A DNA stretch of 26,813 nt from the UHGV virus genome UHGV-0083306; one strand, 5' to 3'. Origin of the DNA: a virus. The notes beneath the pieces were generated by a model. That model did no database searches. It had not been told where the DNA came from and saw only the letters and a list, made by a program, of their open reading frames with translations. Made by a program: the position numbers and the translations under genes. Positions 5,815 to 12,497 of the stretch are shown here, in pieces. The stretch's first letter is position 1; each line of letters starts with the position of its first letter.

Positions 5815-6072
5815 CTACTTCGCTTTTGCTTCCGCTCGCTTACGCCGGCGCTCTTCTTTCCTCTCGGCTTTTGCCATGTCCATGAATGCCTGCATGATCG
5901 AGTTCCGCATCATGTAGCTAACAAAGTGATGATTGACACAGCCGTTGAGGCGCAGCTGCTCGCCAAACTCATCCACCGAGGCCAATGCTTCCATCATGCC
6001 CTTCTCGCCTTTCATGAACTCTGAGAAGTCGCGCCCCGCTCTGGAGGCGCATTCAATGACACGATCACTCAT
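5815..6072 (-). CDS. Hypothetical protein (85 aa) with basic C-terminal helix
   Basis: ATGA start/stop overlap with the KilA-N gene. The tail is KAERKEERRRKRAEAKAK. Confidence 0.6.
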   Translation of the reverse strand: MSDRVIECASRAGRDFSEFMKGEKGMMEALASVDEFGEQLRLNGCVNHHFVSYMMRNSIMQAFMDMAKAERKEERRRKRAEAKAK

Positions 6073-6566
6073 CCCGGAAGCCCGGGGATCGTAATCTGCA
6101 GCTGGTTAGCCAGGGAGTTAATCTCAGCGACCAACACTGGCTTCGTATAGCGCCATGCTGCCAGCCCTTGTCCGCAGAAGCTCGCCATGTCTTTCTTCTG
6201 GTCAAACTCATGACATTTCATGTTGAGCTGCGCACTTAAGCTGTTGCGATGCTGAAGTTCTCCGGTGAAGTAGTCATCGAGGACTTTATAGGCCGCGTAC
6301 TTGAACCCGGGGTTTAACCAAGCCGCATAATCGTAAGCAACAAACTTCCCGCCATATGTTCCACCGTGTACACCGCGCTCAGTAAAAACCACAGATTCGT
6401 GGTTTTTCTCCAGCTCGGCTAAGAACTCTTTGGTCTGCTTGTTTCGCAGGTAGTGGTAAGGCGATTCAGATTCACTTTTACCACTGGCTTTCCACATATC
6501 AGTGAGGCAGATCATGCCATCTTCACCGATACGAATTGGTTGATTGAAGAGGGTTAATGATTTCAT
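6069..6566 (-). CDS. KilA-N domain protein
   Basis: 165 aa. The N-terminal ~100 aa show KilA-N hallmarks (IRIGEDGMICLTDMWKASG, KEFLAELEK, GTYGGKFVAYDYAAWLNP). Confidence 0.7.
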   Translation of the reverse strand: MKSLTLFNQPIRIGEDGMICLTDMWKASGKSESESPYHYLRNKQTKEFLAELEKNHESVVFTERGVHGGTYGGKFVAYDYAAWLNPGFKYAAYKVLDDYFTGELQHRNSLSAQLNMKCHEFDQKKDMASFCGQGLAAWRYTKPVLVAEINSLANQLQITIPGLPG

Positions 6567-6680
6567 AGCGTGTACCTACTCTTTGAAATGAACCTTTGCC
6601 GCACAGGAAACCAGCCCACCGAGGCTCGCCAGCACTAACTGGTATCCTCAAAGGCCCATTCCAAAGGGGCAGGTTCGGTG

Positions 6681-6706
6681 TAAAAAACATGCGTTGCGGT
6701 ACGCAT
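6681..6706 (-). terminator. Intrinsic terminator (distal of a tandem pair after Rz)
   Basis: Minus strand: ATGCGT-6 nt-ACGCAT stem, then GTTTTTTA. Confidence 0.6.
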
Positions 6707-6711
6707 TTATT

Positions 6712-6735
6712 GGAAAAAGCCCCGCATCGCGAGGC
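6712..6735 (-). terminator. Intrinsic terminator (proximal, 33 nt after Rz stop)
   Basis: Minus strand: GCCTCGC-GAT-GCGGGGC stem, then TTTTTCC. Confidence 0.65.
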
Positions 6736-6767
6736 TCATTAAATGGACTTTGTGATTTGCAAAAAAA

Positions 6768-7985: not shown

Positions 7986-8102
7986 GTCTTACCCCCAATA
8001 AGGGGATTTGCTCTATTTAATTAGGAATAAGGTCGATTACTGATAGAACAAATCCAGGCTACTGTGTTTAGTAATCAGATTTGTTCGTGACCGATATGCA
8101 CG

Positions 8103-8140
8103 GGCAAAACGGCAGGAGGTTGTTAGCGCAACCTCCTGCC
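8103..8140 (-). terminator. Terminator-like hairpin in the S leader
   Basis: Minus strand: 11-bp stem GGCAGGAGGTT/AACCTCCTGCC followed by GTTTTG. I recall the same hairpin in lambda. Its function is unproven. Confidence 0.35.
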
Positions 8141-8389
8141 ACCCGCGTTCACGAAGGTCATGTGTAGAAGGCCGCAGCGTAACTATCACTGATGAATTCA
8201 GGATAGCCAGTGGCTACGGCTCAGTTTGGGTCGTGCTGTTGCTGGGCGGCGATGACGCCTGTACGCATTTGGTGATCCGGTTCTGCTTCCGGTATTCGCT
8301 TAATTCAGCACAACGGAAAGAGCACTGGCTAACCAGGCTCGCCGACTCTTCACGATTATCGACTCAATGCTCTTACCTGTTGTGCAGAT

Positions 8390-8447
8390 ATAAAAAATCC
8401 CGAAACCGTTATGCAGGCTCTAACTATTACCTGCGAACTGTTTCGGG
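8390..8447 (-). terminator. tR' terminator (end of the pR' 6S-type transcript)
   Basis: Long hairpin CCCGAAAC...GTTTCGGG (8399..8447), followed on the minus strand by ATTTTTTATA. It matches recalled lambda tR'. Confidence 0.8.
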
Positions 8448-8580
8448 ATTGCATTTTGCAGACCTCTCTGCCTGCGATGGTTGGAGTTCCAGACGATACG
8501 TCGAAGTGACCAACTAGGCGGAATCGGTAGTAAGCGCCGCCTCTTTTCATCTCACTACCACAACGAGCGAATTAACCCAT

Positions 8581-9072
8581 CTATCCCATACTGGAGAATT
8601 CACCATGATATTTTATCCTGGCATTTTCCATTGCCTTTCTAGCCTCCTCGATATCGTCAAAACACCCTACATGAATCCTTTTACCATTGACTCTAATTCT
8701 TCCAACCCACTTGTTTGCAGCAGAATTAAAAGTCACCCCCTTCACACCAGATGAATTGTTTTTCCTCATCTTGCTGTTCCATGAGTTTTGAGTGTTAGTA
8801 ACAACACGAAGATTGGCTATCCGGTTATCAGACCTATCACCATTAATATGGTCAATCACATCGGTTGGCCAATCATTGTAAACCATCAGCCATGCAATTC
8901 TATGGACATATAGCCGCATTCCATAAAGTTTTACCTGCAGATATCCATTGGTTTTATAGCCAACAACAGCGCCATAGATAAATCTAGAGGACCGAGGTGG
9001 ATTCTTCCATGTAAGAATTCCAGTATCTGGATTGTAATTAAAAAGTCTCAATGCATCTTCACGTTTTAACAT
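8581..9072 (-). CDS. HNH homing endonuclease with AP2-like DNA-binding domain
   Basis: 163 aa. HNH_3-type motif HRIAWLMVY..VIDHINGDRSDNRIANLR..TNTQN, then an AP2-like GVKGVTF..KWVGRIRVNGKRIHVGCFDDIEEA. Confidence 0.85.
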   Translation of the reverse strand: MLKREDALRLFNYNPDTGILTWKNPPRSSRFIYGAVVGYKTNGYLQVKLYGMRLYVHRIAWLMVYNDWPTDVIDHINGDRSDNRIANLRVVTNTQNSWNSKMRKNNSSGVKGVTFNSAANKWVGRIRVNGKRIHVGCFDDIEEARKAMENARIKYHGEFSSMG

Positions 9073-9092
9073 AGGCGAACCACATAGATATT

Positions 9093-9157
9093 AGAGCCTG
9101 CTGACATAGAAATATCACCACGAGAGAAGTCGCCAAAAGCGATATTTCTCAGGCTCT
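9093..9157 (-). other. Interrupted 17-bp hairpin in the 5' UTR of the HNH gene
   Basis: AGAGCCTG/CAGGCTCT (8 bp) plus AGAAATATC/GATATTTCT (9 bp), with a 7-nt bulge and a 24-nt loop. It ends 20 nt before the ATG, which lacks a strong SD. Confidence 0.4.
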
Positions 9158-9260
9158 ATTCCTATGTGCTCTCGAGTTTATGATGCGCATGTCAGTGCGC
9201 TTAGAACTTAAAGATGAGGTGGGTAAAAGCTTAAAGAATGTGAACGGATATAAATCTGCC

Positions 9261-9301
9261 ATTCTTGGGTCAAATTTACCCAATTTTATTCAATAAGTCA
9301 A
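9261..9301 (-). promoter_or_regulatory. Late promoter pR' with Q-binding element and -10-like pause element (qut)
   Basis: Minus strand: TTGACT (9301..9296), 17 nt (TATTGAATAAAATTGGG), TAAATT (9278..9273), TGACCC, then AAGAAT at +1..+6 (lambda: AACGAT). It is identical to recalled lambda pR' through the -10. Confidence 0.8.
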
Positions 9302-9343
9302 TATCATGCCGTTAATATGTTGCCATCCGTGGCAATCATGCTG

Positions 9344-9967
9344 CTAACGTGTGACCGCATTCAAAATGTTGTCTGCGATTGACTCTTCTTTGTGGCATTG
9401 CACCACCAGAGCGTCATACAGCGGCTTAACAGTGCGTGACCAGGTGGGTTGGGTAAGGTTTGGGATTAGCATCGTCACAGCGCGATATGCTGCGCTTGCT
9501 GGCATCCTTGAATAGCCGACGCCTTTGCATCTTCCGCACTCTTTCTCGACAACTCTCCCCCACAGCTCTGTTTTGGCAATATCAACCGCACGGCCTGTAC
9601 CGTGGCAATCTCTGCATCTTGCCCCCGGCGTCGCGGCACTACGGCAATAATCCGCATAAGCGAATGTTGCGAGCACTTGCAGTACCTTTGCCTTAGTATT
9701 TCCTTCAAGCTTTGCCACACCACGGTATTTCCCCGATACCTTGTGTGCAAATTGCATCAGATAGTTGATAGCCTTTTGTTTGTCGTTCTGGCTGAGTTCG
9801 TGCTTACCGCAGAATGCAGCCATACCGAATCCGGCTTGTGATTGCGCCATCCCCATAGCAGCCATCACATCAGTACCGGAAAGAGAGTCAGAAGCCGTGG
9901 CCCGTGGTGAGTCGCTCATCATCGGGCTTTTTGGCGAATGAAATTTAGCTACGCTTTCGAGTCTCAT
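9344..9967 (-). CDS. Q: Late antiterminator Q (lambda type)
   Basis: 207 aa matching recalled lambda Q (MRLESVAKFHSPKSPMMSDSPRATASDSLSGTDVMAAMG...), with a zinc finger CRDCHGTG..CGRCKGVG. Confidence 0.95.
   Translation of the reverse strand: MRLESVAKFHSPKSPMMSDSPRATASDSLSGTDVMAAMGMAQSQAGFGMAAFCGKHELSQNDKQKAINYLMQFAHKVSGKYRGVAKLEGNTKAKVLQVLATFAYADYCRSAATPGARCRDCHGTGRAVDIAKTELWGRVVEKECGRCKGVGYSRMPASAAYRAVTMLIPNLTQPTWSRTVKPLYDALVVQCHKEESIADNILNAVTR
9667..9699 (+). promoter_or_regulatory. paQ-like CII-dependent antisense promoter inside Q
   Basis: TTGCGAGCACTTGC (TTGC-N6-TTGC), then 13 nt, then TAGTAT. The geometry is the same as pRE and pI in this window. Confidence 0.6.
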
Positions 9968-11345: not shown

Positions 11346-11485
11346 ACGTCCTCCTTTTCCTGCGGTAGTGGTAAAACTCCTGTTGGTGTTCTTTCACACC
11401 GGAGACACCATCGATTCCAGTAAGGTTAATTTGGTCTGAAGCGGTTATCTTCTTTGCATTCACCGCACCGATCACATCGCATCAT
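11312..11485 (-). pseudogene. ninD: ninD disrupted by a nonsense codon
   Basis: ATG 11485 opens [19 protein letters not shown], then TAA at 11428..11426, where I recall CAA in lambda. The downstream NinD codons ([37 protein letters not shown]) remain in frame. The lambda stop position reads TCA here. Confidence 0.6.
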
Positions 11486-11903
11486 GCAGCCCGATCTCCC
11501 CATCTCGCTTTCCACTCCAGAGCCAGTCGCGCTTCGTCTGACCACTTAACGCCACGCTCTGTACCGAATGCCTGTATAAGCTCTAATAACTCCGCAAATT
11601 CGCTTACACGCATCCTGCTGGTTGACTGGCCTATTACCACAAGCCATTCCCGGCAAGGTTAGGAACAACGTCCTGCTGCTTTAATGCTGCGGTAAACACA
11701 CACTTCCAGCTTTCTGCATCCAGCCAGCGACCATGCCATTCAACCTGACGAGAGACGTCACCAAGGCAAGCCCAAAGCTTTCGATTCTGGTCTAAGCTGC
11801 GGTTGCGCTGCTTAAACTCGACAATGATGTCTAAATCGCATGTCCTAAGATACTGAATGGCGTTATATCTTATAGATTCATTAGTAAGGTGTATTTGACA
11901 CAT
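11482..11903 (-). pseudogene. ninB: ninB (orf) 3' portion, separated from its 5' end and carrying a -1 frameshift
   Basis: 11634..11903 encodes ..DIIVEFKQRNRSLDQNRKLWACLGDVSRQVEWHGRWLDAESWKCVFTAALKQQDVVPNLAGNG, then stops. The last 52 NinB codons ([25 protein letters not shown]) continue in another frame, 11640..11482. GGCTTGTGG here compares with recalled lambda GGCTTTGTGG. Confidence 0.75.
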
Positions 11904-12400
11904 TTCATTTTAATACCTCGCAAATTCGCCGAAACATTCATCCGCTTTATTTGCATATACTTTATGAGCTTCCTTTGGGTCATCGTAAAACCCAAGATTA
12001 ACTTTCCTCTTGTTGATTACGATTTGCGCCCTCCATTTTCTTGATTTCTTATCCCATGAAACGCCTTTATATCCTGATTTGTTATTTGCCTTTTTGTTTA
12101 CGTTTTGGATGTTTTGAGATCGAGTTGCCAATCTAAGATTTGCTATACGATTGTCATCCCTAACGAGATTTATGTGGTCGATATCACTTTTTGGTAGACT
12201 GCCATTCATATAGAGCCACGCCAGCCTGTGTGCCTTATAAAGTTTTCCATCGACTTTTATTACCCAGTAGCCTTCGCTACTCTTATGCCCTGCGATATCC
12301 CCAGCATTCATTCTCTGGCATTTCTTTACTTTCCATGTGAATTTCCCTGTTAACTCATCGTAGAGAAGGACTTCTTTAAGTCTCTGCTGAGTTATTTGAT
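11825..12400 (-). mobile_element. 576-bp AT-rich HNH endonuclease insertion in ninB
   Basis: ATCA occurs at both edges (12404..12401 and 11828..11825). Removing 11825..12400 (192 codons) restores a continuous NinB frame (PTKPI-IVEFKQRNRS). Confidence 0.55.
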
Positions 12401-12497
12401 TGATTGGTTTGGTTGGGTCTGGAAGAATTTGCTGTATCGCGTGAATAACGTTTTGCTGATGAATGGGGCTTCTTAGTTCAAACGTTAGTTTCCTCAT
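11910..12497 (-). CDS. NinB(1-32)::HNH-AP2 homing endonuclease fusion ORF
   Basis: 195 aa. It starts MRKLTFELRSPIHQQNVIHAIQQILPDPTKPI (the NinB N-terminus), then HRLAWLYMNG..DIDHINLVRDDNRIANLRLATRSQN and GYKGVSW..KWRAQIVINKRKVNLGFYDDPKEA. It is a paralog of 8581..9072, roughly 35-40% identical by eye. Confidence 0.8.
   Translation of the reverse strand: MRKLTFELRSPIHQQNVIHAIQQILPDPTKPINQITQQRLKEVLLYDELTGKFTWKVKKCQRMNAGDIAGHKSSEGYWVIKVDGKLYKAHRLAWLYMNGSLPKSDIDHINLVRDDNRIANLRLATRSQNIQNVNKKANNKSGYKGVSWDKKSRKWRAQIVINKRKVNLGFYDDPKEAHKVYANKADECFGEFARY

Follow-up and report, generated by a model that had tools for sequence, protein, structure and literature searches.

How is a nuclease gene held in check when it is placed in the only late-region transcript that is made in a lysogen? 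The question is raised by virus genome UHGV-0083306, in a stretch of 26,813 nucleotides (the window; positions are counted from its first letter). Here an HNH-AP2 endonuclease cassette sits between +2 and lambda +4 of a lambda-type late promoter, pR'. For sigma-dependent pausing and for antitermination by Q, this lambda unit (pR'-qut-tR') serves as the reference. The unexpected result of the analysis is an RNA leader that ties the cassette to a family of late-operon accessory modules. That pR' is constitutive in lysogens is established (PMC7547250), as had been stated in the original prediction of this element, which was made from the sequence alone.

The minus strand of the window carries the lambda Q gene, pR' and then the 6S/tR' unit, interrupted by an inserted block (Table 1). 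The flanks share 99.8% DNA identity with lambda. In an alignment of the window to lambda J02459 (alignment A1), the left flank follows lambda from upstream of the -35 hexamer to +2, the sole change being T>C at -2, and the right flank takes up the lambda sequence at lambda +4 (G8581) and keeps to it over all of 6S and tR'. Alignment to lambda also assigns the transcription start, +1, to A9266. The tR' stem (8447..8399) and T-run (8397..8392) belong to a lambda-identical segment, 8447..8392, that now lies ~875 nt from +1. Q gene, Q-binding promoter and tR' are all intact beside the cassette. A promoter scan also picks up pR', in a search that did not exceed chance (2 sites found versus 3.0 expected from shuffles), and the identity of pR' is therefore settled by its sequence being identical to that of lambda and not by the scan. 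Its 17-nt spacer carries the lambda Q-binding element, whose place there is established for lambda pR'. The original prediction had read a minus-strand TTGACT-17-TAAATT (9301..9273) with the lambda Q-binding spacer, followed by an insert of ~682 bp and then by resumed lambda sequence running into tR', and the alignment to lambda bears out each of these points.

The inserted block opens with an alternative initial transcribed sequence of 64 nt; a structured RNA leader of 131 nt follows, and then a 163-aa HNH-AP2 open reading frame (ORF). Counted between the two copies of ATGG, the same insert is 682 bp long (9258..8577). The two descriptions are equivalent, and a 683-bp block in place of the +3 C is the better fit to the relatives. 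These relatives include three diverged cassette-bearing loci, L003, L004 and L005. Their transcripts would start with AAGAAT-GGGAG, AATGCT-GGGAG and AATGCT-AGGAG, respectively, and that of the window with AAGAAT-GGCAG; the next 50-70 nt are loosely homologous among all four. Phage ES18 has an L004-type promoter without a cassette, and its divergence from L004 begins right after the -10 hexamer. For the L005-type promoter, a search of the phage collection gave no cassette-free relative. Because the start is continuous with the L003-L005 leaders, and because of the point at which ES18 diverges, the imported DNA is taken to begin at or just before +3; it brings its own start-proximal sequence, including the last four bases of the hexamer. 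The junction had been placed at about +9 in the original prediction; the same two observations put it better at +2/+3.

At the 3' end of the block, the last codons of the ORF (AGT ATG GGA TAG) adjoin GATGGGTTAAT. The homologous ORF of L150, a prophage of Xenorhabdus bovienii, continues into AACGATGGGTTATTGCCTCTCGTTG, which is a copy of lambda +1..+24, and the late leader of that phage itself differs from the copy behind its HNH ORF. The cassette has evidently travelled together with a piece of lambda-type leader. At L150 1860-2012 the HNH ORF reads through the lambda +1..+24 copy and a terminator, and a tRNA gene follows (Rfam tRNA, 57.6 bits). Both in L150 and in a further locus, L151, the cassette lies after a first terminator and before a second one; its place is always the late leader and not always the promoter start.

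What RNA would be made from this arrangement? On the sense strand of the insert, the promoter and terminator scan predicted no terminator-like site and no convincing internal promoter, and inspection of the leader by eye for sigma70 hexamers gave none. Because no sense-strand terminator is predicted inside the insert, the Q-independent RNA should start at 9266 and end near 8392, which would make it ~875 nt long where the lambda RNA has 194 nt. Over its first 33 nt (9234..9266, minus strand; AAGAAUGG...CACAUUCUU) this predicted transcript can form a 5'-terminal hairpin that contains the pause-hexamer sequence. This hairpin of the alternative start, formed with +1/+2, is present in the minimum-energy fold, and L004 has an analogous 5' hairpin (GCUGGGAG...CUCCCAGC). 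A group I intron or an intein as host of the nuclease gene was ruled out: the target is non-coding, and Rfam at E<=10 returned no family in 8000..9600 beyond a spurious match to a Drosophila long non-coding RNA.

The insertion point falls inside the hexamer at which Q loading is prepared in lambda. Lambda has AACGAT at +1..+6, as do the 121 fetched cassette-free alleles, and the window has AAGAAT, which is exclusive to alleles with the cassette or its deletion derivative (25/25). AAGAAT keeps A2 and T6 and matches TATAAT at 4/6 positions versus 3/6 in lambda; on the lambda model we infer that it is a sigma70-dependent pause element. The lambda pause needs a -10-like hexamer at +1..+6 and is tuned by T+14 N Y+16 G+17, an element that lambda matches perfectly (PMC9191641). 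This downstream element is lost in the window, where +14..+17 reads TTAT and the next TNYG is TCCG at +19..+22; in addition, GGG at +7..+9 has become GGC. A changed pause context had been predicted, and it is found in this form, the -10-like hexamer kept and the downstream element gone. The pause may shift in position or become shorter in the window allele. The proposal that three substitutions near the junction confer self-immunity has no support in the form given. The T>C change at -2 is a common polymorphism, with T, C or A at this position in occupied and empty alleles alike, and the GA at +3/+4, found only with the cassette or its deletion derivative (25/25), is most simply imported DNA. 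The allele is a natural pause-site variant in which foreign DNA rebuilds the hexamer while the downstream pause element is gone, and as such it could show directly which sequence features Q loading needs in living phages.

The ORF (9072..8581) matches Pfam HNH_3 (E 5.7e-17) and, in its C-terminal part, the AP2 DNA-binding domain (E 5e-8; 33.6 bits against a cut-off of 33.3), in agreement with the HNH plus AP2-like reading of the original prediction. HNH plus AP2 is a recognized homing endonuclease architecture (PMC10448857, citing Magnani et al. 2004). An AlphaFold prediction from 60 homologues has high confidence (pLDDT 95.4), and the modelled fold is I-HmuI-like. In the 60 homologues D74, H75, N83, N87 and N99 are invariant and N96 is nearly so. 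Against relatives of 86% and 74% identity, dN/dS is 0.09 and 0.07; the ORF is under purifying selection, and the protein has stayed functional. The ORF is intact in 16 of the 20 copies that could be assessed; two have an in-frame deletion of the nuclease domain and two a frameshift. A small upstream ORF (ATGTCAGCA...) was considered as being coupled to the HNH start and rejected as a conserved coding feature, since Xenorhabdus-type copies have ACG in place of its ATG and L005 has it as an in-frame fusion. Elsewhere in the window (11482..12497, minus strand), a second HNH_3 plus AP2 ORF of 195 aa, 40% identical to the pR' nuclease, forms an in-frame fusion with about the first 33 codons of ninB. 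Behind it comes the remainder of ninB (11903..11634) with a different, recoded N-terminus, and a frameshift lies between this part and the C-terminal one (11640..11482). In appearance, ninB has been invaded by a second homing endonuclease gene.

If the cassette is mobile, its presence should vary among otherwise similar loci. Of 5426 complete E. coli genomes, 16 have the whole arrangement and 1270 match the flanks; two E. coli records give two matching places. E. coli LR-64-1, JNE131328 and GPEC1240 are among the carrier lysogens. The same site is also occupied in 17 IMG/VR contigs and 3 metagenome contigs. None of the 137 matching phage records spans the insert, so that the cassette is found in no isolated phage and is, as had been supposed, no part of normal lambda-type phages. 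Searched alone against 50,697 phage records, the insert gave only four short matches, all inside other HNH genes. The fetched loci comprised 121 empty, 24 occupied and 8 deletion-derivative ones. Mean identity among cassette copies is 99.0%, compared with 95.9% in the adjoining 416 nt (Q end and promoter) and 94.4% in the 190 nt of 6S on the other side; at greater distance all similarity between carriers is lost, at differing points. Six promoter haplotypes (62 nt ending at +7) were seen both with and without the cassette, as were both major 6S haplotypes. Among the alleles examined there was no AAGAATGGGTTAAT, the expected product of deletion between the ATGG repeats, and the empty sites are therefore not derived from occupied ones by simple deletion. 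Each of the protein relatives (86, 74, 66, 62 and 56% identity) is encoded in the interval from a Q gene to the lysis genes, and the Q proteins beside them are of other types (254-276 aa).

Present or absent at one exact site and low in diversity, the cassette behaves as a mobile element, to judge by these comparisons. A homing endonuclease gene would be expected to show just this, a recent spread to diverse alleles and then decay, and it is not proof that the nuclease drives the spread. The population pattern fits the earlier idea of a homing-type mobile element. In eight further contigs all but the left 130 nt of the insert is gone, and a 9-nt repeat (TAGAGCCTG) marks the join to the 3' half of tR'. 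These HNH-less derivatives (L152-L159, from IMG/VR; motif at 722-860 in L152) keep AAGAAT together with the left ~130 nt. In the deletion derivatives the leader sequence CTCGAGA can pair with GTTTCGGG of tR', which makes a hybrid terminator. In L153-L159 one more terminator-like hairpin is inserted just 5' of the small leader hairpin H0; tRNA-like sequences, judged by eye, lie downstream.

Between the alternative start and the nuclease start codon lies the structured leader. The original prediction had pointed out an interrupted hairpin (9093..9157). The hairpin is real, as the core of the minimum-energy fold (z -3.1); it is not incidental, since it forms part of a conserved and covarying RNA leader. 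The Shine-Dalgarno sequence is weak, and its GG sits in the 3' base of the long hairpin. In every diverged cassette pair the leader is conserved above the coding sequence (e.g., 84% versus 67% and 77% versus 59%). Among 26 distinct sequences, 97% of cells are paired and 17/38 pairs have changed on both sides; none of 500 shuffles reaches the observed values, and controls in which the pairing was slid are 32-53% paired. A MAFFT alignment (A4) put one helix out of register in the L019 group, and the model-based alignment A6 was used instead. A6 favours the modelled helices, and the crossing helix H1 lies outside the model. H1 covaries even though it is absent from the model, being CATGAG/CTCATG or CAAGA/TCTTG in other lineages.

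H1 crosses the long hairpin, and it would be either part of a pseudoknot or a folding intermediate. Nascent RNA ending just past the 3' arm of H1 folds into H1 in the window and L019 types. At full length the long hairpin is the minimum-energy fold, with an advantage of 13-23 kcal/mol over nested folds in which H1 is enforced. The leader pairs include many G-U and U-G pairs. Because these would be mismatches on the other strand, the sense-strand RNA is probably the selected form of the leader, and for the same reason a palindrome at the DNA level is disfavoured. A boxB-like nut hairpin was rejected for H0, whose loops (CUGACA, AUCGCA and CUAGCA) have no GNRA-like pentaloop and whose location is the late operon. 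Rfam gave no name to the leader: the spurious match mentioned above was the only one in 8000..9600, and in seven other motif-bearing loci nothing overlapped the leader at E<=1. The open-access literature that we searched gave nothing specific on the insertion or on the RNA motif.

Is the leader a companion of the nuclease? A covariance model (R1) built from six cassettes was run against 98 loci with distant HNH-AP2 homologues (<=48% identity) and gave one match, which is not beside an HNH gene; it lies ahead of a membrane-protein gene in a Citrobacter prophage. For this reason the leader is not a general companion of the HNH-AP2 protein family. A degenerate pattern search retrieved 30 more IMG/VR loci with the leader motif. 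The genes behind it in other loci encode T5orf172, P22_AR_N/ORF11CD3, Rha and KilA-N-like proteins, a second HNH-AP2 lineage and membrane ORFs. In these 30 loci the motif always lies in the late operon, in the endolysin-Rz gap or after Rz, and usually directly behind an intrinsic terminator. The named phages with the motif are HK639 (before rha), CUS-3, mEp237, SPN3UB, P22-like Salmonella phages and Enterobacter phage CobraSix. According to a paper on phage L (PMC8022706), terminators are frequent inside late operons and have no assigned role.

A second, divergent leader module is present in the window after Rz, ahead of a KilA-N gene and not part of the pR' insert (Table 1). In another IMG/VR locus (L286, 3477-3989), a leader-plus-membrane-gene module has an HNH-like ORF directly upstream, and in a third (L284, 8113-8829) a T5orf172 gene lies behind the leader. 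Further nuclease-type genes are thus clustered in this late-operon slot, which may be a hot spot for homing-type genes, as these occurrences suggest. Compared by eye, the 5' half of lambda tR' (AATCCCGAAAC...GGTAATAGTTAGAGCCTG; 8413..8450, minus strand) resembles the leader segment AAACTCGAGAG...GGAATAGAGCCTG (9145..9178, minus strand), and the leader motif and tR' may share ancestry.

Table 1. Features of the late control unit, the inserted block and the second leader module in the window
Feature	Position	Strand	Basis
Q late antiterminator gene, lambda type, 207 aa	9344..9967	-	Pfam Antiterm, E 6e-58
pR' late promoter: -35 TTGACT 9301..9296, 17-nt spacer, -10 TAAATT 9278..9273	9273..9301	-	Lambda-identical
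AAGAAT at +1..+6, putative -10-like pause hexamer; first two bases lambda's, last four from the insert	9261..9266	-	Lambda alignment
Inserted block, 683 bp, in place of lambda's +3 C	8582..9264	-	Alignment to lambda
Alternative initial transcribed sequence, +3..+66	9201..9264	-	Homologous to leaders of diverged loci L003, L004, L005
Conserved structured RNA leader, 131 nt, ahead of the nuclease start codon	9073..9200	-	Covariance model R1, 149 bits
Small leader hairpin H0	9200..9185	-	Fold
Crossing leader helix H1, CGAGAG/CTCTCG	9174..9169 with 9126..9121	-	Covariation
Long bulged leader hairpin, core 9157..9093	9168..9081	-	Minimum-energy fold
HNH-AP2 endonuclease ORF, 163 aa; stop TAG 8583..8581, its G also lambda +4	8581..9072	-	Pfam
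Remaining lambda 6S unit, lambda +4 to end, including terminator tR'	8392..8581	-	Lambda-identical in A1
Second, divergent leader module after Rz	6575..6737	-	R1 weak match 6579..6668, E 0.005; fold z -3.4
Parts of the second module: terminator 6737..6714, small hairpin 6706..6689, long bulged hairpin		-	Fold
KilA-N/ORF11CD3 gene behind the second leader module	6566..6069	-	Pfam KilA-N and ORF11CD3

What, then, is the cassette? We consider it probable that it is a free-standing HNH-AP2 homing cassette in the late leader, expressed from pR', held back by its leader and spreading into cassette-free relatives. The promoter, active even in lysogens, would transcribe the cassette, and without Q the RNA would stop at tR' (~875 versus 194 nt). 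The leader would fold into the long hairpin that holds the ribosome-binding GG, leaving translation of the nuclease low or conditional, as in I-TevI and mobE. The nuclease would nick or cut cassette-free lambda-type late leaders of co-infecting or co-resident lambdoid phages, repair off the occupied allele would copy the cassette in, and the carrier would be protected by the insertion that splits its own target site. Homing in this sense is unproven, and it gains what we would call indirect support from the population data; its main rival is ordinary recombination of a leader-plus-gene module. Several points weigh against it. The same RNA leader stands ahead of non-nuclease genes, and the module could spread by ordinary recombination at conserved leader and terminator sequences, for which the nuclease is not needed. 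The insertion site is not strictly conserved, as L150 and L151 have the cassette after a terminator and not at the promoter start. Recombination among lambdoid phages is frequent, so shared flank haplotypes alone do not prove break-driven conversion. The Shine-Dalgarno sequence is weak and buried, and very little of the protein may be produced; the loss of T+14 N Y+16 G+17 may impair Q loading; and at least one carrier prophage (L002) is visibly decayed.

If ordinary recombination is at work, the element would be a generic late-operon cargo module, a leader plus any gene, exchanged by homologous or microhomology recombination. HNH-AP2 would then not be the driver of spread and may serve phage competition, defence or counter-defence. 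This fits the leader's place before T5orf172, P22_AR_N, Rha, KilA-N-like and membrane genes and a second HNH-AP2 lineage, mostly behind a terminator, as well as the second such module before the KilA-N gene of the window and the junctions that fall on conserved sequences, namely the -10 hexamer and the TAGAGCCTG repeat. We nevertheless regard it as rather unlikely. Diversity in the cassette is four to five times below that of the sequence on either side, and the bases that distinguish the six promoter haplotypes lie 4-60 bp from the junction; low cassette diversity and six haplotypes together would require that exchange happen very often and precisely at the border, which is what a local break would produce. 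Both HNH-AP2 and T5orf172, moreover, are recognized homing endonuclease classes (PMC10448857). Decay raises another possibility, an insertion that has no present activity and is tolerated since late transcription is not abolished. The 4 truncated copies out of 20, the HNH-less derivatives, the weak Shine-Dalgarno sequence and the degraded state of some carrier prophages all suit an inert remnant. Such a remnant would hardly keep dN/dS at 0.07-0.09 across lineages down to 74% identity, the catalytic-motif residues in 60 homologues, 16 of 20 ORFs intact and a leader that is more conserved than the ORF and has compensatory changes, and we think this explanation very improbable. Least probable is a housekeeping role for the HNH protein in packaging, as in terminase-associated cos cleavage of the HK97 type, or as a nuclease of a recombination module. 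HNH proteins have such roles in some phages (PMC12315714); the packaging genes here, however, are of the P22-like headful kind (gp3, gp2, portal) and lie at a distance of ~3.4 kb, the protein belongs to the HNH_3-AP2 homing type, and most phages with the same Q, lysis and packaging modules do without the cassette. A packaging HNH of the HK97 gp74 type in particular was rejected, as the ORF is not beside cos-type terminase genes and the P22-like packaging module is distant.

The answer to the opening question may be the conserved leader. It may be the check on nuclease expression, and it is common to many lambdoid late-operon accessory genes, including HK639 rha and those of P22-like phages. 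We infer that its function is most likely translational gating, with RNase III processing as a variant. More tentatively, and with doubt about the two proposals taken together, the leader might be an undescribed class of cis-regulatory RNA that gates translation of accessory genes through a folding switch or RNase processing, distinguishing lysogenic from Q-driven RNA, and the HNH cassette might be a homing element adapted to the Q-loading site, whose portable sigma-pause hexamer permits it to invade late promoters of different Q types with late transcription preserved. The accessory genes gated in this way may encode homing endonucleases, antirepressors, Rha and KilA-N proteins and membrane proteins. 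If the nuclease does target cassette-free late leaders, lambdoid prophages would be using it to compete with one another, and it would drive mosaicism at the boundary of the Q and lysis modules.

How does the cassette compare with known systems? The HNH-AP2 homing endonucleases, such as IPA-HNH of ICP1 (PMC10448857) and those of Xanthomonas phages (PMC2248197), together with I-HmuI (PDB 1u3e), have the same N-terminal HNH_3 His-Me finger and C-terminal AP2 domain; like the window cassette they are ~160-190 aa long, phage-borne, present or absent between close relatives and prone to decay. The family of Magnani et al. 2004, as it is cited in PMC10448857, is the nearest known kind of protein. 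Unlike the known HNH-AP2 genes, which are found in introns or between or within protein genes, that of the window occupies a non-coding regulatory unit. It lies 2-3 nt after the late start, inside the pause hexamer, and brings a replacement hexamer; its cleavage activity is a prediction.

Hairpins that hide the ribosome-binding site are documented for the homing endonuclease genes I-TevI, I-TevII/III, mobE of Aeh1 and segB (PMC3014915). As in I-TevI, mobE and segB, the window hairpin is directly 5' of the nuclease start and takes in the Shine-Dalgarno region, and hairpins of both kinds fit a limit on nuclease expression from read-through transcripts. The window leader differs from those of I-TevI and mobE in being larger (131 nt, four helices and a crossing helix), in occurring across genera and in being common to non-nuclease genes; an internal late promoter that would give an unfolded, translatable transcript was not found in the window insert.

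The closest relatives of the transcription unit are those of lambda 6S RNA and StxS, which share the constitutive pR'-tR' unit with the window (PMC7547250). Their short RNA would become in the window a ~875-nt RNA with an ORF. In Stx phages the cargo (tRNAs, stx) is downstream of tR', whereas in the window it is upstream. Compared with the pause and Q-loading site of lambda pR' (PMC9191641, PMC5001585), the -35 hexamer, Q-binding spacer and -10 hexamer are identical and a hexamer with A2 and T6 is present; the window differs in having AAGAAT and not AACGAT, GGC and not GGG at +7..+9, and TTAT at +14..+17. Finally, the rha or moron slots of HK639 (rha), CUS-3 and P22-like phages have the same leader motif behind a terminator and before rha-type genes, after the lysis cassette; the window module, by contrast, has a nuclease as its gene and is the first thing in the operon.

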